Source: Puniceicoccaceae bacterium (lineage in GTDB: Bacteria; Verrucomicrobiota; Verrucomicrobiia; Opitutales; Oceanipulchritudinaceae). Taken from it: DNA of 64,000 nt. Both the position numbers and the translations under genes were made by a program. Below, in pieces: positions 884 through 59,029 of this stretch. The stretch spans positions 32,001 to 96,000 of the forward strand of contig JBFOMH010000002.1 in the NCBI GenBank assembly GCA_040830765.1, given 5' to 3'. Position 1 is the stretch's first letter; each line of letters starts with the position of its first letter. A model generated the notes under the pieces. It made no database searches, was not told the DNA's origin, and saw only the letters and a program-made list of their open reading frames with translations.

Positions 884-949
884 TTAAATCTTAGCCTTAG
901 TCGTAATCCTAATCTTAATCCACCCCAATCTTAGACTTAATCTTAATCC
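884..949. repeat. Hexamer array, solo arm(s) of the AATCTT/AGCCTT family
   Basis: AAATCTTAGCCTTAGTCGTAATCCTAATCTTAATCC...CAATCTTAGACTTAATCTTAATCC, between divergent rsmE and the phosphatase gene. Confidence 0.85.
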
Positions 950-20890: not shown

Positions 20891-20940
20891 TTAGGATTAA
20901 GATAAAGATTAAGGCTAAGATTAAGATTTAGATTAAGATT
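20891..20940. repeat. Hexamer array, solo arm in AAGATT orientation
   Basis: TTAGGATTAAGATAAAGATTAAGGCTAAGATTAAGATTTAGATTAAGATT between sufC and sufB, ending 8 nt before the sufB ATG. Confidence 0.9.
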
Positions 20941-24315: not shown

Positions 24316-24404
24316 ATCTTAATCTTAGCCTTAATCTTAATCTTAGCCTTAGCCTTAGCCTTTCGCGACGAGATTAAGATTAAGATTAAGGCTAAGATTA
24401 AGAT
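24316..24404. repeat. Inverted hexamer-arm pair (empty element)
   Basis: 24316-24345 is the exact reverse complement of 24375-24404 (30 bp). Confidence 0.92.
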
Positions 24405-24407
24405 TAT

Positions 24408-35044: not shown

Positions 35045-35162
35045 TTGATCTTAATCTTAGCCTTAGGCTTAATATTAATCCCAAAACCCAATCTTAGTCT
35101 TAGCCTTAATCTTAATCTTAATCTTCTGCGCCGGGATTAAGATTAAGGCTAAGATTGAGATT
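35045..35162. repeat. Hexamer-arm cluster: two AATCTT arms and one inverted arm
   Basis: TTAATCTTAGCCTT...AATCTTAGTCTTAGCCTTAATCTTAATC...GATTAAGATTAAGGCTAAGATTGAGATT, abutting the RND permease stop codon. Confidence 0.9.
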
Positions 35163-35163
35163 A

Positions 35164-38100
35164 TTAAGCTTTCCACCAGTGGTAGGCGCGGCGGAAGAAC
35201 TTGGCGATATCCTCGAAGATGAGATAGACCATGGGGACGAGGAAAAGGGTGAGGAAGGTGGCGAAGGCGATCCCGCCGGCGAGGGAGACGGCCATGGGGA
35301 TAAGGAACTGGGCCTGGCGGGACTTCTCGAGGAGAAGCGGGGTGAGGCCGCCGATGGTGGTCAGCGAGGTCAGGAGGATGGGCCGGAAGCGGACGACGCC
35401 GGCCTTGGAAACGGCCCGGAGGAGGGAATAGCCTTCCTGGCGGCGACGGTTGACATAATCGACGAGGACGAGGGAGTCATTCACGACCACTCCTACGAGG
35501 GCGAGCATGCCGAGGATGGACATGATACTGAGGGTATCGCCGCGGAAAATATGGAAGAGAATGGCCCCGATGGTGCTGAAGGGAATGATCAGCATGATAA
35601 TGAAGGGCTGGGCATAGGAGCGGAAGACAATGGCCAGCATGGCATAGATCCCGAAGAGGACGAGAATGATGCCGAAGCGGAGGCTCTCGAAGCTCTCGCG
35701 CTGTTCGCGGGCTTCCCCCTCGAGGGAAAAGGAGACTTCCGGATGGAGGGCAAGGAGATCGGGGAGGTAATTCTCGATGAGGTCCGCCTTGATCTTTTCG
35801 ACGTCGCCCTTCCCTTCCTCGATGTCGGCGGTGACATTGAGGGTGCGGTTGCGGTCGACCCGGCGGATATTGGGCAAGCTTTTGCCCATCTCGGCATTGG
35901 CCACCTCAGCGAAGGGCACCTCGTTCCCGTCGGGGGTACGGATGCGCATGTTCTCGAGGTTGCCGAGGCTGCGGCGCTCCTCCTCCGGATAGCGGACCAT
36001 GACGCGGACATCGTCTCGCCCGCGCTGGATACGCTGGGCCTCGAGCCCGAAAAAGGCCTGGCGGACCTGCCGGGCGAGGTCCTCGGAGGTCAGGCCGAGG
36101 TTACGGGCGGCCGGCTTGAGAGTCAGCTTGAGCTCGTCCTTGCCGGACTCGAAGGAGTCGAGGATATCGACGACGCCGGGATAGGTAGCGAGCTGGTCCT
36201 TGAGCTTCAGGGCGAGAGCGTCGAGCTGCTTGAAGTCGGGCCCGGAGAGCTGGATATCGATGGGCGCGCCCGCACTGGAGCGGGAGAAGATATAGCTGAC
36301 TTCCCCACCGGGGACAAAGCCGACCTTGTTGCGCCATTCGCCCGAGACCGCAAAGGCGGAAACGGCGGGGTTGCGGGTTTCGCCAGGCTCCAGCTCAAGA
36401 ATCACTTCCCCGAGGTGGCTCTGGCCACTGCCACTTCTCCCGAAGCGGCTCCCGAAAGGCTGGCCACCGACGGTCATAAGGGAATTCATGATGGTCCCGT
36501 CGCCGTATTGCTCGTTGAACTGGTTACGCGTCTCCTCCGCAGCAGCGGCAATCTGGCGGATATAGCGCTCGGTGACTTCAATTGGCGTCCCGATCGGCAT
36601 GTCGAGGCGGACGGTCACGGTATCACTCTCGATACGGGGAAAGAAAAAGAACTTCAGCCGGCCGGTGGAGAGAAACCCGATCATAACCATGAGGAGGACC
36701 ACGAAGACGGCGGCCGTACTGTAGCGGTACTTGATGGCACCGTGAAGGAGCGGCCGGTAGACCTTCTTGATCAGCAGCTCCAGTCCATCAGCGAAGAAGC
36801 GTTGGAAGCGCTGCAGGAAATTGAGCTTTTCCCCCTTGCGGCCAAGGTGGGTCAGCAGGCTCATGTGGGAAGGCAGGACCAGCTTGGACTGGACGAGGGA
36901 GAACGCTAGGCAGGCAATGACGACAATGGCAATGACCGAGAAAAAGGCCCCGCGGCGACCCGGGAGCAGCATCAGCGGGACAAAGGCAATCATCGTGGTG
37001 ATGACCCCGAAGGTCACCGGGACGCTGACTTCATGGGTCCCCCGGATGGCGGCCTCGGTAGTGTCCCCGCCCTTGCGCAGATGGTTGAAGATATTCTCCC
37101 CGGTGACAATGGCATCGTCGACGACAATCCCCAGGACCATGATGAAGGCGAACATCGAGAGCAGGTTGAGGGAGATGTCGAAGAGCGGCATCACCGCCAG
37201 CCCGCCGAGGAAACTGACTGGCACCCCGATGGCTACAAAGATGGCCACCGAGAAACGGAGAAAGGCCGCCAGTATCAGGAAAACCAATACACCCCCCCAA
37301 AGGAGGCTGCTGGTCAGGGTATTGAGGCGGCCCTCGATCCGTTCCGACCAGTCGCTCCAGACGGTCAGGCTGACGCCCTCAGGCAGGGTCGCCGAGGAGC
37401 GCTCGATGTAGTCCTTGACGGTATTGGCCAGCTCAATGACGCTCTGGTCGCCGACGCGGAAGACATCGACCATGACGGCGCGGTTTCCGTTGAACTCGGA
37501 ATACATGACGTTCTCGTCAAAGCCGTCATTGACCTGGGCAATGTCAGCGAGGGTGAGCCGGGTCCCGTCGGCCTGGGTAACGACGACAATCTCCTCGAAC
37601 TCCTCCTGGAATTGGGCCTCGGCATCGGTCCGCAGGAGGACATCGCCCCCGCGGGTACGGATGCGACCGGCCGAGAGGTCGACGGAGGAACGGCGAATGG
37701 CATTGGCGACATCGGCAAACGTCAGCCCGTAGGCCCGGAGTGTATTTTCCGAAATCTCAATCGCCACTTCATAGGGCCGGGCCCCACGGAGCCCCACCTG
37801 GGTGACCCCGGGGAGGTTGGTAATCTCGTCCCGGATACGTTCCCCGAGGCGCTTGAGGTCACGCTCGGTCAGCGGGCCGGAAAGGACAATGTTGAGGACG
37901 CGCTCGGAACGGGAAGGTTGCTCGATAATCGGGCGCTCGGCGTCCTCGGGAAAGGTGCTGATGGAATCGACCCGGTTCTTGATATCGTCAAGCAGCTTGC
38001 GCGGTTCGTATCCCTTCTGGACTTCGGCGGTCACGGTCACCGAGCCCTCCGAGGCATTGGTAAAGATACGGTCGATTCCCTGGAGATCCTGAATCGCCTC

Positions 38101-38301
38101 CTCAATACGGACCCCGATGGCCTCTTCTGATTCGGTCGGGGTGGAGCCGCGGTAGATGACGCGGACATTGACGACATCCGCCTCGACGCTGGGGAAGACC
38201 TCAAGGGTCAGCCGGTTGAAGGCGGAGAAGAAGCCGACCACGCAAATGGCGGCCATGAGGAGGTTGGCCGCGACCCGGTTCCGTGCGAAGTAATCAATCA
38301 T
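35164..38301 (-). CDS. RND efflux permease (AcrB/AcrD/AcrF family)
   Basis: N.VAANLLM, LGIVVDDAIV, GVVVNDSLVLV and RFRPILLTSLTT motifs. Confidence 0.95.
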   Translation of the reverse strand: MIDYFARNRVAANLLMAAICVVGFFSAFNRLTLEVFPSVEADVVNVRVIYRGSTPTESEEAIGVRIEEAIQDLQGIDRIFTNASEGSVTVTAEVQKGYEPRKLLDDIKNRVDSISTFPEDAERPIIEQPSRSERVLNIVLSGPLTERDLKRLGERIRDEITNLPGVTQVGLRGARPYEVAIEISENTLRAYGLTFADVANAIRRSSVDLSAGRIRTRGGDVLLRTDAEAQFQEEFEEIVVVTQADGTRLTLADIAQVNDGFDENVMYSEFNGNRAVMVDVFRVGDQSVIELANTVKDYIERSSATLPEGVSLTVWSDWSERIEGRLNTLTSSLLWGGVLVFLILAAFLRFSVAIFVAIGVPVSFLGGLAVMPLFDISLNLLSMFAFIMVLGIVVDDAIVTGENIFNHLRKGGDTTEAAIRGTHEVSVPVTFGVITTMIAFVPLMLLPGRRGAFFSVIAIVVIACLAFSLVQSKLVLPSHMSLLTHLGRKGEKLNFLQRFQRFFADGLELLIKKVYRPLLHGAIKYRYSTAAVFVVLLMVMIGFLSTGRLKFFFFPRIESDTVTVRLDMPIGTPIEVTERYIRQIAAAAEETRNQFNEQYGDGTIMNSLMTVGGQPFGSRFGRSGSGQSHLGEVILELEPGETRNPAVSAFAVSGEWRNKVGFVPGGEVSYIFSRSSAGAPIDIQLSGPDFKQLDALALKLKDQLATYPGVVDILDSFESGKDELKLTLKPAARNLGLTSEDLARQVRQAFFGLEAQRIQRGRDDVRVMVRYPEEERRSLGNLENMRIRTPDGNEVPFAEVANAEMGKSLPNIRRVDRNRTLNVTADIEEGKGDVEKIKADLIENYLPDLLALHPEVSFSLEGEAREQRESFESLRFGIILVLFGIYAMLAIVFRSYAQPFIIMLIIPFSTIGAILFHIFRGDTLSIMSILGMLALVGVVVNDSLVLVDYVNRRRQEGYSLLRAVSKAGVVRFRPILLTSLTTIGGLTPLLLEKSRQAQFLIPMAVSLAGGIAFATFLTLFLVPMVYLIFEDIAKFFRRAYHWWKA

Positions 38302-39466
38302 CCCCAATTCCCTCCGGCTGGACATGCATGCCGTCAATGGCAAGGGGGAGCTGGGTCAGGCAGGCGAGTGTTCCGGGTTGGATGCTTTCCTCGCGGAAGA
38401 CGATGACCTCGTTGTCGGACCAGAGGGGCTCGACAGTGACACGCTTGATACGGTTCTCGTCGTCGAGGGCAAGGATGTAGCGGGCCTCGCGGAAGGCCCG
38501 GCGCGGCAGGACATAGACATTTTCCAGGATACTCCCCTCGATCCGGGCCTCGACAAAAAGCCCCACCTTGAGCGGCTGGCCATGGCTGGGACCGTAGGGG
38601 TCATCCACCTGGGCGACGACAAAGACCTGCCGGCTGCTGGTATCAATCGCACCCTCGACACGGACGATGCGGCCCCTCCAGCTGTGGTCTTCCTGTCCGA
38701 AGGAGGCACTCAATGTCACGGGAACATTGGGCTGGGTTGAGTTGTCTCCCCGGACCACGGGGTCGACATCGAGAAAGGCAAACTCCCCGGTGGTCAGGGG
38801 AAGGCGGATTTCCGCGTAGTCGACAGCATATACGCGGGCCAGGACGGAGCCCGGACTGACGACCTGGCCAATGTCGACATTCTTGTCGAGGACACGGCCA
38901 TCGTAGGGCGCGGTGATGCGGGTCCGCTCGAGATTGCGGCGGGCCTCGGCGACGCGCGCCTCGGCGGCGTCAACATTGGCCCGGGCAAGCGCCAGTTGGG
39001 GCACCCGGAGGACCAGGTCGGTCGGCGGAGCGCCTTCCCCGAGGCGTTCCCAGTCCCGCTGGGCCTGATTAGTCTGGGCCTCCTCCTCGGCGAGGCGGAC
39101 CCGCGCCTCGGCAAGGTTGGCCTCGGCAATCGTCAGGGCTGTCTGGTAGTCGCTGGGATCAATCTCCAGCAGGATGTCACCCTGCGCGAAAAAGCCACCC
39201 TCGCGGAAATTGTCGGCGACGTACATGATTTCCCCGGAGACCTGCGGAATAAGTGTACTTTCGGTCCGCGCAGAGACAGTCCCCTGGGTATCGAGAACAA
39301 CCGTAAAGGATTGCGGCTGGAGGGCCTGCGTCTCGACCTCGATGACCGGCTCCGGCGGTGTCCGGCGCTGGGCGACCGGCTTGGTGGCCACGAGAGCATA
39401 AAAGATAATGACCCCGACCCCGAGAATGAGGAACGGCAGTGACTTGCGGAGGATTTTCGAAAGCAT
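38294..39466 (-). CDS. RND periplasmic adaptor (MFP)
   Basis: N-terminal TM, PQVSG, ITAPYDG, alpha-hairpin; overlaps the permease start. Confidence 0.93.
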   Translation of the reverse strand: MLSKILRKSLPFLILGVGVIIFYALVATKPVAQRRTPPEPVIEVETQALQPQSFTVVLDTQGTVSARTESTLIPQVSGEIMYVADNFREGGFFAQGDILLEIDPSDYQTALTIAEANLAEARVRLAEEEAQTNQAQRDWERLGEGAPPTDLVLRVPQLALARANVDAAEARVAEARRNLERTRITAPYDGRVLDKNVDIGQVVSPGSVLARVYAVDYAEIRLPLTTGEFAFLDVDPVVRGDNSTQPNVPVTLSASFGQEDHSWRGRIVRVEGAIDTSSRQVFVVAQVDDPYGPSHGQPLKVGLFVEARIEGSILENVYVLPRRAFREARYILALDDENRIKRVTVEPLWSDNEVIVFREESIQPGTLACLTQLPLAIDGMHVQPEGIGDD

Positions 39467-39477
39467 CGTTAACAAGG

Positions 39478-39604
39478 TCTTAATCTTAGCCTTAATCTTA
39501 ATCTTAATCTAAGACTTTTACGCAGGGATTAGGATCAAGATTAAGATTAAGGCTAAGATTAAGATTGGGAGGGAAAGATTAAGGCTAAGATTGAGATTAA
39601 GATT
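39478..39604. repeat. Inverted hexamer-arm pair plus an extra arm, inside the RND operon
   Basis: 39478-39505 is the exact reverse complement of 39537-39564 (28 bp); another AAGATTAAGGCTAAGATT arm follows. Confidence 0.92.
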
Positions 39605-39605
39605 T

Positions 39606-49499: not shown

Positions 49500-50645
49500 C
49501 TACTGCTGGATATAGACCCAAGCGCCACTCTGGGAGACGTTCTCCCCGGGAACAAACAGCCATTGGCTGAGGCTGAAGGACCAGACGTAGGGATCGGAAT
49601 CGACCCACAGCCAGCCCATCCAGGATCCCGTATCGACGTAACCGCCGTCAACCGGCCAAAGGCCCCAGGTGGTTCCGGAAGCCCCGATGGGCTGCAGGCT
49701 GGTCACGCGGAATCCCAGCTGCATGAGCTCGGAACCGGGGGTAGTTGTCCGGACATTGCCCTCCGAGCTGATGAAGACCGGATTATCCAGGAAGGAACCG
49801 CCTGAACCAATGACCCGCTGGTTGGAGTCCTGATAAATGGTATCATTGAATTCGGTCACGTTGCCCGCCATGTCGTAGGCCCCGACAAAGGTGGTGGCAG
49901 CAGTGTAGGCCCCGACATCGGTAGGAAAGCCGGCGATGTCGGTCGGACCACCCGAGACCGCAAAGTTCAGGTTGGCACTGTTTGGATTGTCGCTGTTGGG
50001 CTCGACAAATGCCGGTTCAAGGTCACTGCGGGTCGGATAGAGCCACCAGTCGTCCGCCGGTCCGTTGGAGCTGGCATCGTAGTAGGCCGCCTTGTACCAT
50101 TCATTCTGGCTGGCCACGGCAACGCCGCCCGCGGCCCAGGCATCTGGGTTGCGGGTGACCGTGTTCGAATTGAGCGCCTGGGGATCCGTCAGGTCGTACA
50201 TGCCGGTATTGGGATCGCTGTTACCCTGGCCATTGGTCAGCCAGTTGCAGAAGGCCATGGCTTTCCAGAGGGAGAGGTAGTTGACCGGCTTGTTGGCCAT
50301 CCCCTCCTTCAATTCATAGGTGTAACTCCCCTTGGAACCGGAGCGGAGAATCCCGCCCCGCGGCTTGGCCCCCATATTGAAGCCATAAAGCCACTCGTTT
50401 TCACCGGCCGAGGCAACGGCGTTGAGAAAGGTCGCATACTGGGCATTGGTAACCTCGTAGGTCCCGATGTAATAATCGTAGGACACGGTCCCGCGCCGCA
50501 ACTCCGGAAAGTCCCCGTCTTCCGGATTGGGCGGGTTGTTGGCCCCGCCGACAAGGACCGTCTCGACTACCAGGTTGGCGAACAGGAAGAGCGGGGAGAG
50601 AAGGAAAAGGCTAAGGATCAAAGTGCGATACTGGAGACGTTTCAT
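49500..50645 (-). CDS. Secreted FGE/SUMF1-family domain protein with a Trp-rich C-terminal domain
   Basis: Signal peptide; YEVTNAQY, NEWYKAA, YDMAGNV.E and LGFRV motifs; tail WGLWPVDGGYVDTGSWMGWLWV...GAWVYIQQ. Confidence 0.85.
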   Translation of the reverse strand: MKRLQYRTLILSLFLLSPLFLFANLVVETVLVGGANNPPNPEDGDFPELRRGTVSYDYYIGTYEVTNAQYATFLNAVASAGENEWLYGFNMGAKPRGGILRSGSKGSYTYELKEGMANKPVNYLSLWKAMAFCNWLTNGQGNSDPNTGMYDLTDPQALNSNTVTRNPDAWAAGGVAVASQNEWYKAAYYDASSNGPADDWWLYPTRSDLEPAFVEPNSDNPNSANLNFAVSGGPTDIAGFPTDVGAYTAATTFVGAYDMAGNVTEFNDTIYQDSNQRVIGSGGSFLDNPVFISSEGNVRTTTPGSELMQLGFRVTSLQPIGASGTTWGLWPVDGGYVDTGSWMGWLWVDSDPYVWSFSLSQWLFVPGENVSQSGAWVYIQQ

Positions 50646-50880: not shown

Positions 50881-51909
50881 TCACTTCCCGGAACCGGCCC
50901 TTTTCGCATTCAAGCGACGTCGGATAACAAGAATGGTGCCTAGGACAGGAAGTGCCAGCAGCCCAACTGTTGCGGGCTCCGGGACAGGATTGAATAACAG
51001 GGTGTCCAGTTCGTAGATGTTCTCCAGGTAATTATCGGGATCATATGGAGAGCCTGCTTGAGCAAGACTATACTCACGGTTCCACCAGTAATTCCCCGGA
51101 TCAGTTAAACCTTCAGTGGCTTCGAAAATGATGGGGGAGCTGGAGTTCCAGATCAATGAGTCTATCGTTTCACCAAGAATCTGGTAAGCAAAAGCAAATT
51201 CCACTGTATTGGCGTTGTTAGGATCGACCCGGGACCAGAGAATGGGGTCATCAACTGAGCCTCCGGCATCAGAATTTTTCAAGGTTCCGTCGACTGCGAT
51301 TTCATTGTCGTAGCCATTGCCGCTGGGTTCAGTAGGGCTGTCTTCGACCAATTCCGGCGATCCCAGCAAGCGATCGTCATTGGAATCATAAAACACCTTG
51401 TTAGTGCCGTCCTGACTTTTCAAATTCCAGTCGGTGTCCTTGGGATCCGTTGTCGTGTTCAGTTCGTCGACGCTGATGTCCTCCGCACTGAGTAAATATT
51501 GGCCAATCCGAATCCGGTATTGCTTATTCAGGCCTGTTTCGACGAGCTCTCCACCATCGTTTGGTTCTTCATATCGAGAGAACAGCTCAATCCGCCCGTA
51601 AATAAAGTTGTCATCATAGCCGAGCGAAGCTTCCACAATGTCCAGGCTTCCGAAATAATCCGAACCTTGGGACCCGTTGTAGAATGTCGTTTGCAATGGA
51701 CGCTCATAGAGCTCCATTTCATAGACATCGGCACCATCACCAACTTCCCAGCTCCGTTCGCCTGTCGTGGGATCCGTGGTTTTGGTCAAGCCTGTGACAA
51801 AGTCCTGTTGGGTTCCCAGATTATATATCGGGTTGGTGGGTGTATATTGACCCATCAGGCAGACAGGAAGAAAACTGATGCAGAACCACAAAGAGAGAGT
51901 ATTTTTCAT
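50881..51909 (-). CDS. PEP-CTERM sorting-signal protein
   Basis: Signal peptide; C-terminal VPEPAT plus TM plus RRR; acidic Asp/Thr/Asn-rich body. Confidence 0.9.
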   Translation of the reverse strand: MKNTLSLWFCISFLPVCLMGQYTPTNPIYNLGTQQDFVTGLTKTTDPTTGERSWEVGDGADVYEMELYERPLQTTFYNGSQGSDYFGSLDIVEASLGYDDNFIYGRIELFSRYEEPNDGGELVETGLNKQYRIRIGQYLLSAEDISVDELNTTTDPKDTDWNLKSQDGTNKVFYDSNDDRLLGSPELVEDSPTEPSGNGYDNEIAVDGTLKNSDAGGSVDDPILWSRVDPNNANTVEFAFAYQILGETIDSLIWNSSSPIIFEATEGLTDPGNYWWNREYSLAQAGSPYDPDNYLENIYELDTLLFNPVPEPATVGLLALPVLGTILVIRRRLNAKRAGSGK

Positions 51910-52071
51910 TGGTAGGAAGAGAGAACCTTATAATGTAAGGAAAAATTCTTATTAAAGTAAATAAAAAATTTAAGAATAATGAGTATTTTACCTTAGACTA
52001 TTGCAGGAGTAACCTAAATTGACTAAAGCAGCAGGTTGGCGGTAAACCCGAAGTCGAGCCATGCTGCCCCT

Positions 52072-53607
52072 ATGCTCTCCACCGTCCATTCCGGGGCCCT
52101 GATGGGGATTGAGGCCTGGCCGGTGACGGTGGAGGTCAATACCGGGGAATGTGGCGAGCCGAATCCGGTCGTGGTGGGGATGGCCAGTACGGCGGTGAAG
52201 GAGAGCAAGGACCGGGTCTGGGCGGCGATTGCCAACAGCCGCTACACCCTGCCGCAGAAGCGGACGGTAATCAACCTCGCCCCGGGGCATTTGCGGAAGG
52301 AAGGGGCGCTCTATGACCTGCCGATCGCTCTCGGGGTCTTGCAGGCAACGAGCCAGCTGAGCCCGCAGGGACTGGGAGATTACCTTGTCGCCGGTGAGCT
52401 AAGCTTGTCCGGGGAAGTCCGACCGGTCCGCGGTGGTCTTGCCCTGGCCGTCTGTGCCCACGCGGAAGGAAAGAAGGGATTACTCCTGCCCCCGAAGACA
52501 GCCGAGGAGGCAGCCCTGATGGGAGATGTGGATGTCTATGCCATTTCCTCGATGGATGCAGCCTGCGCCTTTCTCGAGGGACGCCATGTCCTCAAGCCGC
52601 TGAAGAAACGTTTCTCCACGGCTATCCCGTCGGCGGCTACTGACGGAACCGACTTCTCCGACGTGAAGGGTCAACAGGCCGTCCGGCGGGCGGTCGAGGT
52701 AGCAGCGGCGGGGGGGCATAATCTCTTGATGCTGGGTCCGCCAGGTTCTGGAAAGTCAATGATGGCCAAGCGGATTTCGACCATCCTGCCACCTTTGCGG
52801 GAAGCGGAATATCTGGACATCCTGCGCATTTACTCCGCCTCGGGCAAAACCCTGAACGGGGAGGCGGTGACGGCGCTGCGTCCCTTCCGCAGTCCCCACC
52901 ACACGATCAGTGACGTCGGGCTGATTGGCGGGGGGACCATTCCCGGGCCGGGGGAAATCTCCCTTGCGCACCATGGGGTTCTCTTTCTTGACGAGTTGCC
53001 GGAGTTCAAGCGCGGTGCCCTGGAGGTGCTGCGCCAGCCGCTGGAGGATGGAGCGGTGACCATTTCCCGAAGCGCCGGCAAGGTGACGCTGCCCGCTTCC
53101 TTCATGCTGGTCAGCGCCATGAATCCCTGCCCCTGCGGCTACCTTGGCGATTCGCGGAACCGGTGCCAGTGCACGGCCCTGCAAATCCAGCGCTACCGTT
53201 CGCGGGTCAGCGGTCCCCTGCTCGACCGGATCGACATCCATGTCGAGGCACCGGCCCTCAGCATCGAGGAGCTGCGGCAAAAGAATCCGGGCGAGTCCTC
53301 CCTGGCCATGCGTGAACGGGTCGCCGCCGCCATGGAGCGCCAGGCAAGCCGCTTCGCGGACAGCCCGCCGGGCATTCCCCGGGTCAACGCCCGGATGTCC
53401 CATGCCCGTATCCGGCAACATTGCCGGCTGGACGGAAACCTCGGCGACCTCCTGCAGCAGGCCATGAAGCGCCTCCGCCTCAGCGCCCGGGCCTACGACC
53501 GCATCCTCAAGGTGTCCCGGACCATCGCCGATTTGGAAGGTAGCGATAAAATCGCGACATCCCACCTGATGGAGGCCATCCACTACCGCAGCCTCGATCG
53601 GGAATAG
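52072..53607 (+). CDS. comM: YifB/ComM-family Mg-chelatase-like AAA ATPase
   Basis: [34 protein letters not shown] and SGPLLDRID motifs. Confidence 0.93.
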
Positions 53608-53612
53608 TCAAA

Positions 53613-54101
53613 ATCTTAATCTTAGCCTTAATCTTGATCTTAATCTCCCCTACCACATGAAGGTCGAATTCAACCACGAGAAACTCAAGGTTTACAGGGA
53701 CTCAATCCTGTTTGTGAACAAGTTGAACCAGATCCTGGATTCGCAAAAATCCAGAACCCCAATCAGGGATCAGATAGAAAGAGCGTCCATCTCGATTCCT
53801 TTAAATATCGCTGAAGGAAACGGCAAGTTCACGCCTAGAGACAAGTGCAGATTTTTTGATATTGCCCGTGGCTCGGCAATGGAATGCGCCGCTTGTCTGG
53901 ACATTCTTGTCGTTAAAGAAGAGATAGCCCCGCACATGGCTAAAATGTTGAAGGGTATCCTCCACGAAATCGTATGCATGCTGGTCGGCTTAATCCAATC
54001 AACGGATAAAAGGAGGAACTACTAAGTGGAAACTTTTGGAGTTAACCAAAAATCACGATTACGGCTTAGATTAAGATCAAGATTAAGGCTAAGATTAAGA
54101 T
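53613..54101. mobile_element. Putative element: four-helix-bundle gene bounded by perfect 34-bp inverted hexamer arms
   Basis: 53613-53646 is the exact reverse complement of 54068-54101. The interior is visibly more AT-rich than the flanking genes. Mobility is inferred. Confidence 0.6.
53657..54025 (+). CDS. Four helix bundle protein (23S rRNA IVS-encoded / bAvd-like family)
   Basis: HEKLKVY, DQIERASISIPLNIAEG and FFDIARGSAMEC motifs. Confidence 0.92.
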   Translation: MKVEFNHEKLKVYRDSILFVNKLNQILDSQKSRTPIRDQIERASISIPLNIAEGNGKFTPRDKCRFFDIARGSAMECAACLDILVVKEEIAPHMAKMLKGILHEIVCMLVGLIQSTDKRRNY

Positions 54102-54106
54102 CTAAT

Positions 54107-55135
54107 TTAATGAATCAGATCCCAGACGACGCGGCAGTCGTGTATCAGCTTTTTCAGGACATCGGGAGTGACGGCCTGCTTGGGATCGTCGCCGATGCCG
54201 GAGATGGGATTGACGTGGGCCTCGATGATAAGCCCGTCGGCCCCGTAGGCGATGGCGGCGAGGGAGCAGGCGGGGACAAACTTGGCCCGGCCGACGGCGT
54301 GGGAGGGATCAGCCACGACGGGTGCCCATGACTTGTCCTTGAGCAACGGGGTGATGCTCTCGTCCGGGTGATTGCGGAAACCGTCGAGAGCGGGCATGGT
54401 CCCGCGGGGACAGAAAATGACATTGGGATTGCCGTTGGCGGCAAGGTACTCGGCGGCGGAAATATATTCGTCAACCGGTCCCATGTGGCGACTACGCTTG
54501 AGGAGGACCGGGATTCCGGCCTCCGCGGTGCGGCGGCCAATTTCCGCCAGAAGGGTGTAATTGAGGGCGTTGCGGGTCCCGATCTGGAGGACGTCGACTT
54601 CGGCATCCAAAGCAACCGTCAACTGGGCCTCGTCCATGACCTCGGCGACCACCGGCAGACCCGTGCGGGTACGTGCCTCGAGCAGTACCTCCATGGTCTT
54701 GGCGGTTCCCTGGTAGCTGTGGGGAGAGGTTCGCGGTTTCCAGACACCCCCGCGGATACCGTGGGCGCCCGCTTCCTGGACAGCGGCAGCGGTCTCCAGG
54801 AAGGCCTGAGGATTCTTCGGATCGATGGTGCAATGACCGGCAATGAAAAGGGGTTCCTTGCCCAGCTCCACGTTTCCAATGCGGATGGAGTGTTGGGCCA
54901 GGTCGGAGCGGGCATCCATCAGCTTGTAGACCGACTCCATGCGGTCGACCCGGTCGATGTACTCCAGTCCGACGAGGCGATTGACCATGGTTTCACTCCG
55001 CTCATCCCCGATGATGGCGTAGATATTGCGGTGTGCCCCGTAGATGACCTGAATCTTACAGCCGAATTCGCCGACGATGGCCTCGACTTCGGAGAGTTGA
55101 GGATCGGTCAGGGTAGGTGCCTTGGAAATAATCAT
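54107..55135 (-). CDS. DAHP synthase, type I-beta, with N-terminal regulatory domain
   Basis: RGGVWKPRTSP, QIGTRN, PVLLKR, DPSHAVG and DGLIIEAH motifs. Confidence 0.92.
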   Translation of the reverse strand: MIISKAPTLTDPQLSEVEAIVGEFGCKIQVIYGAHRNIYAIIGDERSETMVNRLVGLEYIDRVDRMESVYKLMDARSDLAQHSIRIGNVELGKEPLFIAGHCTIDPKNPQAFLETAAAVQEAGAHGIRGGVWKPRTSPHSYQGTAKTMEVLLEARTRTGLPVVAEVMDEAQLTVALDAEVDVLQIGTRNALNYTLLAEIGRRTAEAGIPVLLKRSRHMGPVDEYISAAEYLAANGNPNVIFCPRGTMPALDGFRNHPDESITPLLKDKSWAPVVADPSHAVGRAKFVPACSLAAIAYGADGLIIEAHVNPISGIGDDPKQAVTPDVLKKLIHDCRVVWDLIH

Positions 55136-58931: not shown

Positions 58932-59029
58932 AATCTTAATCTCAATCTTGCTCTTAATCTTAATCTCCAGGCCGGCTGGGGGCTTGGGACGGGAAGATTA
59001 AGATTAAGATTAAGGCTAAGATTAAGATT
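58932..59029. repeat. Inverted hexamer-arm pair overlapping the clpB stop codon
   Basis: AATCTTAATCTCAATCTTGCTCTTAATCTTAATCT, a GC-rich spacer, then AAGATTAAGATTAAGATTAAGGCTAAGATTAAGATT. Confidence 0.9.

Follow-up and report, generated by a model that had tools for sequence, protein, structure and literature searches.

Within the 64 kb stretch of DNA analysed here (the window), the spacer between yifB, which encodes a Mg-chelatase-like AAA ATPase (52036..53607, + strand), and the convergent gene for DAHP synthase (54107..55135, − strand) is occupied in its entirety by a single cassette. The left arm of this cassette (53613..53646) begins 5 nt past the yifB stop codon and comprises 5.7 hexamer units, whilst the right arm (54068..54101) is its exact reverse complement and lies 5 nt from the stop codon of the DAHP synthase gene. 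Each arm is 34 nt in length, with complementarity at 34/34 positions, and the 421 nt between them carry a single ORF of 122 aa (53657..54025, + strand) that runs in the same direction as yifB, its upstream neighbour. From the ORF list and profile scores this ORF belongs to the PF05635 / TIGR02436 family, and it is referred to below as the four-helix-bundle (4HB) gene. The arms have a period of six bases, TAATCT being accompanied by the variants TAGCCT and TGATCT, and because the inverted repeat is perfect the variant units are mirrored in both arms. A further, decayed copy of the repeat occurs at 54049-54072, overlapping the start of the right arm, such that 54049..54067 forms a decayed inner extension of that arm which is 83 % like the next 24 nt. 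An earlier, sequence-only reading of this locus had described a perfect 34 bp inverted repeat around one gene more AT-rich than its neighbours, with no clear target-site duplication, and this description holds in every respect: the G+C content of the 4HB gene is 45 %, whereas yifB reaches 64 % and the DAHP synthase gene 61 %, and reading of the cassette flanks reveals neither a target-site duplication nor a direct repeat. No Shine–Dalgarno-like motif is visible upstream of the 4HB gene.

Proteins of the PF05635/TIGR02436 family are common in bacteria, and we know of no function for them. The 4HB protein scores 76.8 bits against PF05635 (curated cut-off 33.8) and 73 bits against TIGR02436 (curated cut-off 24), and these were the only profiles matched in searches that found no nuclease, recombinase or polymerase domain. 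Its predicted model (pLDDT 94.5) is a four-helix bundle like the solved members of PF05635, with TM-scores of 0.83-0.92 to Xcc0516 (2gsc) and 0.75-0.87 to BT_0352 (2rld). A relation to Avd, the accessory protein of diversity-generating retroelements (DGRs), had also been named in the sequence-only reading, and the model does have the same predicted fold as Avd (PDB 4dwl, 8ub7), matching 4dwl with TM-scores of 0.78 (normalised to the query) and 0.88 (normalised to the target), an rmsd of 1.8 Å and 11 % sequence identity. Avd acts in a nucleic-acid-copying ribonucleoprotein. Retro-copying of this Avd-like, DGR kind was considered for the cassette and rejected, as there is no match to the reverse transcriptase profile PF00078 in the four hairpin-bearing assemblies searched (the source genome, G000, and its relatives G008, G009 and G010); a DGR has, in addition, a template/variable repeat pair, whereas none is seen at the cassette. 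With regard to quaternary structure, the 2gsc entry holds 5 chains and Xcc0516 is reported to be a homopentamer (PMC4990558, citing Lin 2006), a subunit number with which arms of some five units would loosely agree.

The hexamer of the arms recurs throughout the window, where a 12 nt, two-unit probe finds 62 matches at ≤2 mismatches, compared with 1.0 expected from shuffled sequence. Gene-less hairpins of the same hexamer lie at 24316..24406 (site A, 30/30 pairs), which is followed by a separate intrinsic terminator, and at 58932..59029 (site B, 30/35 pairs), whilst at site C two hairpins, each with an extra array, stand to the left (35046..35163, 26/28 pairs) and to the right (39478..39605, 31/32 pairs) of two RND-pump genes. 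In addition, a lone array of eight units in the AGATTA orientation, with no partner arm, is found at 20891..20940, its counterpart being shorter and diverged in G010 and missing in G009, and two short degenerate arrays of the cassette hexamer occur at 904..949. Across the G000 assembly (3.99 Mb, 40 contigs) there are 40 hexamer arrays in 26 loci, and the 23 loci with at least four units resolve into 14 hairpins and 9 lone arrays. Thirteen of the hairpins are gene-less and the fourteenth is the gene-bearing copy; their stems have 22-39 pairs and are 86-100 % paired, the best of them being that of the gene-bearing copy. By simple ORF calling, the arrays are placed in 17 tandem (co-directional), 6 convergent and 2 divergent spacers. 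The proposal that the cassette represents the 'full' copy of a repeat element is supported by these gene-less hairpins, both elsewhere in the window and in the remainder of the genome. G000 also harbours an orphan family of heptamer arrays. No partner gene for this family was found: by profile search, the gene in the cassette is the sole TIGR02436 gene of the assembly, and a TIGR04256 GxxExxY gene is absent.

Short tandem repeats are known to expand by slippage, and the arms could in principle reflect chance, or microsatellite slippage occurring independently on each side of the gene, an origin that the sequence-only reading had disputed from the mirrored variant hexamers. The controls refute it, leaving it with next to no credence. 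The 34/34 complementarity extends to the variant units, the 62 matches stand against an expectation of 1.0, and the polarity of paired loci in G000 is 5′-(TAATCT)n...(AGATTA)n-3′ in 10/10 cases, the reverse order (AGATTA before TAATCT) being found in 0 of these 10. Moreover, the same layout is seen in orthologs of the gene and across the 4HB family at large.

That family was surveyed using TIGR02436 matches of at least 49 bits in 41 relatives, which yielded 70 loci; a match of 59.5 bits at G022:C14:118811-119053 (profile positions 25-106, within a 227-aa frame) was left out, as were weaker partial matches within frames of 200-380 aa. Seven of the 70 loci were dropped for short flanks, leaving 63 in which the two 250 nt flanks were compared and their best inverted match was scored. 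The median score is 41, compared with 17 for flanks taken from different loci (95th percentile 23, 99th percentile 32), and 59/63 loci exceed the 95th percentile of this cross-locus control, with 46/63 exceeding the 99th. Enrichment of inverted arms at 4HB genes had been suggested as a check, and it was found both in these relatives and, as set out below, in distant phyla; judged on flanking sequence, inverted arms are the rule for the 4HB family and not the exception. Tandem arrays with a period of 5-12 are present in 59/66 upstream and 64/67 downstream flanks of 4HB genes, as opposed to 96/500 random windows, and have a median of 4.4 units (IQR 3.7-5.7) and 31 nt, so are only loosely 'five' in number. 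Of 46 arms, 27 have a period of 7, 14 or 21, and 11 a period of 6, 18 or 24.

The arms also vary in step with the protein that they enclose. Pairs of loci from different genomes that have arm words in common display a normalised protein bit score of 0.52 (7 pairs), as opposed to 0.13 otherwise (937 pairs), and the observed correlation between arm words and protein was reached in 5/500 permutations. Within a species-wide genome collection, the best 80 loci for the 4HB protein have 48-60 % identity to it and are labelled as Verrucomicrobiota, Planctomycetota, Kiritimatiellia, Lentisphaerae, Bacteroidota and Ignavibacteria relatives, Desulfobacterales, SAR324 and others. Runs of at least three tandem TAATCT-like units occur at 47/75 of the closest-relative loci for which both flanks are present, compared with 3/63 of the loci drawn from all subfamilies, and at 25 of those 47 loci TAATCT-like arrays stand on both sides in inverted order. 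It is therefore the unit itself, and not just the capacity for pairing, that follows the protein subfamily across phyla, from which the sequence comparison suggests that the 4HB protein probably recognises the hexamer unit.

The yifB/DAHP synthase junction was next compared across the genus, for which 13 genomes including G000 were searched and the region was matched in 12/12 of the others. All genomes other than G000 are draft assemblies, and because hairpins break contigs the hairpin and array counts given here are lower bounds. In both G008 and G009 a 4HB gene occupies the same spacer, in the same orientation, within complementary inverted hexamer arms, which are built from AATCTC/AATCCC/AATCAT units in G008 and from an AACTTT-type unit in G009. 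The junction of G005 is empty, with the two stop codons 3 nt apart, and that of G010, the closest relative of G000 (88-90 % DNA identity), lacks a 4HB gene and contains instead a GC-rich repeat of another kind. In G012 the contig begins at the 3′ end of the DAHP synthase gene with a hairpin whose loop is short and whose arms are made of a fourth hexamer (TGCTCT-type), and this, as far as the contig edge allows, is a gene-less allele at the DAHP synthase end of the junction. The suggested comparison of relatives for full, empty or absent alleles at this position thus yields a series within one genus: three species have the complete cassette, one has a hairpin without the gene, and one has no cassette at all.

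The 4HB orthologs of G000, G008 and G009 have 55-60 % amino-acid identity to each other, with pN of about 0.30 and pS of 0.82-0.94; as pN lies well below pS, the ORF is kept by purifying selection. In a tree built from 6 flanking gene pieces (about 2.9 kb, supports 73-100), G000 and G010 form one clade and G008 and G009 another; G003 and G005 fall closer to the G008/G009 clade, and G012 groups with G007. A single clade of hexamer-bearing species was not recovered in this tree, and the placement of these species in separate clades therefore requires several losses or a transfer. The sequence-only reading had named syntenic, vertical conservation without arms as the contrary case to its own proposal; the gene is indeed syntenic in relatives, but it has arms there. 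That reading had also envisaged that the cassette may spread or be lost by way of its arms, and here a correction applies: gene-less hairpins are what is dispersed, whereas the 4HB gene looks to be single-copy and vertically inherited within the genus.

G000, G008, G009 and G012 each have a hairpin population to match their own unit. A TAATCT probe matches only 3/41 genomes, with 34 matches in G000, 35 in G010 and 2 in G038, which belongs to another family. The unit of the G009 cassette has 81 matches in G009 and 0 in G000, that of G008 has 43 in G008 and 3 in G000, and the G012 unit has 57 in G012 and 0 in G000, G005, G007 and G010. Most of these matches are plus/minus pairs 50-70 nt apart, i.e. 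gene-less hairpins, and each species contains some 12-30 gene-less hairpins or arrays of its own unit, mostly in intercistronic spacers. Independent mutation of the separate spacers cannot produce a unit that is uniform within a species, so the sequence must be copied among loci, whether by conversion or by re-insertion into slots already in use. G010 and G012 retain well-formed hairpin populations, and no 4HB gene of this subfamily is present in their assemblies (92 % and 98 % complete, respectively), an absence that at such completeness falls short of proving loss. A rule of one gene for one repeat family was therefore rejected, given these two hairpin families without a gene and the orphan heptamer family of G000. 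G003, G004 and G005 have neither the 4HB gene nor hairpins at the sites checked.

Furthermore, the same spacers are used by different units. The window is collinear with G009:C8:108-151 kb, and the two share hairpin-bearing spacers, each with its own unit, at site A (window 24316, G009 126545), site B (window 58932, G009 147546) and site C (window 35046/39478, with a single hairpin at G009 136141). The chance of finding at least three shared sites, given 4 + 4 gene-less sites in G000 and G009, is 0.0005-0.004. Site A hairpins are present in G000, G008 and G009; the same spacer in G010 has a hairpin of an unrelated, octamer-like unit, and in G007 a heptamer array at the contig end. Site B hairpins occur in G000, G010, G008 and G009. 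At neither site A nor site B was a hairpin found in G003, G004, G005 or G012, the last having possible vestiges at both. Between G000 and G010, 4/5 sites are conserved, one of these with its unit changed on both arms, and one site is replaced. Gene-less loci also cluster near the gene-bearing 'master' copy, with 5/22 lying within 38 kb of it in G000 and 6/29 within 31 kb in G009, although these clusters count as one event because they fall in the same inherited region. What this locus adds is the series of junction states within one genus, a set of four units that differ between species and are each accompanied by hairpins of the same unit, and the repeated occupation of given spacers by hairpins of unlike units.

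These patterns bear on the order of events. Hairpins may have come first, as regulatory or terminator-like structures, with a 4HB gene later landing in the loop of one of them, in which case the link between gene and arms would be incidental or a matter of target preference. Such a history would account for gene-less hairpins outnumbering genes, for the occupation of site A by hairpins of unrelated units in G010 and G007, and for the 3 nt spacer that is all there is at the empty G005 junction. It is nonetheless improbable in our judgement, since arms accompany 59/63 4HB genes across widely differing contexts, unit and protein subfamily vary together, and the hairpin at site A is followed by a separate intrinsic terminator. 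In G009, moreover, the gene-less hairpins have loops similar to the inner flanks of that species' master, which is what one would expect of hairpins that, to go by their sequence, look like internal-deletion derivatives of the cassette.

The closest known counterpart in overall construction is the intervening sequence (IVS) of 23S rRNA. In PMC4990558, ORF-bearing IVSs are described for Coxiella burnetii, and cited for Leptospira, Xanthomonas and Brucella, and in Coxiella RNase III cuts the stem beside heptameric repeats that adjoin the S23p ORF. According to an older proposal (Ralph and McClelland 1993, as cited in PMC4990558), the IVS ORF serves mobility. The cassette is like a 23S IVS in that the gene is of the S23p / PF05635 family and sits in the loop of a stem formed from terminal inverted repeats, that the insert is richer in A+T than its host and that a good ribosome-binding site is lacking. 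The IVS is located in a helix of the 23S (or 16S) rRNA gene, whereas the cassette stands between the protein-coding genes yifB and DAHP synthase, and the latter, unlike the 23S IVS, has tandem-hexamer arms and a population of gene-less hairpins. The cassette ORF is also intact and under purifying selection, whereas that of the Coxiella IVS is decaying, and RNase III cutting is shown there for the IVS whereas we infer it for the cassette. In short, the cassette is a PF05635/TIGR02436 member built like an ORF-bearing 23S IVS, but situated outside an rRNA gene. No description of a gene-plus-arms layout outside rRNA was found in searches of the literature outside subscription journals.

At the RNA level, folding of 53600-54112 closes the 34 bp stem in both the MFE and centroid structures (z = −6.4), in agreement with the proposal that the gene would sit in the loop of such a stem in a transcript, and the genome encodes RNase III. 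Mismatches within the stems of 46 loci, read on the sense strand, number 54 of G.U type and 56 of A.C type, so that no selection acting on the RNA of the sense strand is apparent. Contigs from RNA libraries (Logan, four runs) cover parts of the 4HB gene at the depth of its neighbours, in libraries that may contain DNA; they break off at the arms owing to the repetitiveness of the latter, and are of a kind that cannot reveal RNA ends. Two 'joints' within these contigs were considered as an excised form of the cassette and rejected, since the 28 or 72 other letters that they hold between the arms mark them as other hairpin loci.

A purely RNA-level, IVS-like element could be envisaged, wherein the stem would process or insulate transcripts, the protein would have no role in spread and the uniformity of units would stem from gene conversion by the host. 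The long predicted stem and the RNase III gene accord with this, as do the position of the hairpins in intercistronic spacers, where they are probably transcribed, their retention in the same spacers, and their persistence in G010 and G012 without a 4HB gene; the Coxiella paper likewise suggests that the RNA is of greater importance than S23p (PMC4990558). The absence of a sense-strand G.U excess (54 vs 56) points the other way, as does purifying selection on the 4HB ORF. So too does conservation of the unit sequence along with the protein subfamily across phyla (47/75 vs 3/63), and conversion among repeats of 30-40 nt dispersed over megabases would need to be very highly efficient. On balance we regard this explanation as unlikely.

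With regard to the hairpin population, the nearest parallel is the REPIN/RAYT system, in which, by the criteria given in bioRxiv 10.1101/2021.07.10.451892, the gene is flanked by its own repeat and kept in the same extragenic space. The cassette is similar in that its gene is single-copy, is inherited vertically and has members of the associated repeat population on either side, in occupying the same extragenic space (here in G000, G008 and G009), and in being accompanied by dispersed, gene-less inverted doublets that form hairpins of a lineage-specific repeat. The gene of REPIN/RAYT is a Y1/HUH transposase, whereas that of the cassette encodes a 122-aa helical bundle, and REP palindromes are replaced here by arms that are tandem arrays. 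REPIN/RAYT populations decay after loss of the gene, whereas such decay is not evident in G010 or G012; G003, G004 and G005 have lost or never had gene and hairpins alike at the sites checked, and G012 has possible vestiges at sites A and B. Comparison may also be made with MITEs and their autonomous parents, with which the cassette has in common its terminal inverted repeats and, in G009, gene-less copies resembling internal-deletion derivatives. Unlike a transposon with terminal inverted repeats, or a MITE, it has no transposase and no target-site duplication, and different species retain its copies at corresponding spacers.

Arms and hairpins might alternatively be non-autonomous and depend for their movement on a known enzyme encoded elsewhere in the genome and acting in trans, such as a RAYT or IS200-type Y1 transposase. 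Genes matching PF01797 are indeed present in G000, G008, G009 and G010, whilst the hairpin-free G005 has a weak, partial match. The sole strong Y1 gene of G000, on the other hand, has short GC-rich palindromes of its own on its flanks in place of hexamer arrays, the contig on which it lies has no hexamer array at all, and no reverse transcriptase is found in G000, G008, G009 or G010. As the flanks of the RAYT represent a different, GC-rich REP family, RAYT was rejected as the mobiliser, and mobilisation in trans by known enzymes in general is very improbable.

Our preferred reading, to which we would assign a probability of roughly 0.58, is that of a single resident 'master' 4HB cassette, IVS-like in its build and accompanied by a REPIN/RAYT-like population of hairpins, whose protein reads the repeated unit and helps to keep or re-copy those hairpins. 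Under this scheme, the cassette and the hairpins would be transcribed together with host operons, and the arms would pair into a double-stranded RNA stem of roughly 30 bp that RNase III would cut, thereby making the 4HB message independent of read-through from yifB. The encoded protein would recognise the repeated unit and may contribute to the upkeep or re-copying of hairpins, either through conversion from the master or through re-insertion into old slots. Counting against this reading are the neutral balance of G.U and A.C mismatches, the persistence of the G010 and G012 hairpin populations without a gene, the hairpin at site A in G008, which has units unlike those of the G008 master, the unrelated unit at that site in G010, the lack of nuclease, recombinase and polymerase domains in the protein and of a target-site duplication, and the fact that hairpins in the same spacers are explicable by vertical descent and ordinary gene conversion.

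A bolder version of the master-cassette reading would see the 4HB pentamer as the sequence-reading partner of a new intragenomic replicator, a protein devoid of nuclease, transposase and polymerase domains that reads the register of a 6-8 nt tandem unit and directs the templated re-copying of hairpins into fixed slots. The 23S IVS, the dispersed hairpins of short tandem repeats found in many phyla and PF05635 as an orphan family would then all belong to a single system that parallels REPIN/RAYT yet is independent of it; this we offer as a tentative and rather doubtful extension. To our knowledge, intergenic hairpins of short tandem repeats have gone unexplained, much like the function of PF05635/TIGR02436 itself. 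If it is true that the protein directs hairpin copying, then this would constitute a second, independent REPIN-like system, run by a protein that is not a transposase, and the origin of rRNA intervening sequences would also be explained.

With regard to base composition, the four-helix-bundle (4HB) genes of relatives display a lower G+C content than their distal flanks at 59 of 64 loci, with a median difference of -7.5 percentage points. Third-codon-position G+C is likewise reduced in the three orthologs at the yifB/DAHP-synthase junction (0.59, 0.42 and 0.30, against 0.58-0.78), namely the 122-aa gene of the window (53657-54025, forward strand) and its counterparts in the congeneric genomes G008 and G009. 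Despite this low G+C, the three orthologs look to have been vertically inherited. In G010, another relative of the same genus, the junction harbours a GC-rich repeat with internal palindromes, located at two contig ends (loci L074 and L062) that overlap one another as reverse complements. A single TAATCT lies immediately 3′ of the yifB stop codon in this genome, and may be a remnant of an arm.

Other flank layouts also occur. At L117 (G023:C9:149912-151623), a related 4HB gene sits between whole hairpins in direct orientation, instead of single arms, with one hairpin upstream and two downstream. These have the polarity 5′-(AGATCA)n...(TGATCT)n-3′, opposite to that of the TAATCT-type hairpins. 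Long direct repeats spanning the 4HB gene are similarly present at several other loci (L111, L100, L113, L086 and L107).

A GCACAAA-type unit, which was not found in G000 (the genome holding the window), builds a small hairpin family of approximately four loci in G010, at L162 4145-4295 (site A, corresponding to the window spacer at 24316-24406) and on contigs C45, C99 and C136. This unit is similar to that flanking a 4HB gene in another genus (L028). Beside its hexamers, G000 possesses a second array family, with the heptamers AAGGACG, AAGGACT and AAAGACG, at approximately 25 loci outside the window (contigs C4, C5, C6, C13, C14, C17-C19, C22-C24, C28, C39 and C40). These are mostly lone arrays, with a few inverted pairs (e.g. 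C14:16543-16632), and are accompanied by neither a 4HB gene nor a GxxExxY gene. Also outside the window is a RAYT-like Y1 transposase gene (G000:C7:64637-64975), with several short GC-rich palindromes on each side; this is an ordinary REP system, separate from the hexamer hairpins.

Within the window, the nearby ORFs at 50881-51909 and 49500-50645 seem, on inspection of their translations by eye, to encode a PEP-CTERM-anchored protein and one resembling a formylglycine-generating enzyme. Two RND efflux genes, encoding AcrB-like (958 aa) and HlyD-like (393 aa) proteins, occupy 35164-39475, and in both G000 and G010 this pair is bracketed by two hexamer hairpins, whilst at this position G009 has one hairpin and lacks the pump genes. 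Gene blocks may be gained or lost through hairpin-hairpin recombination.
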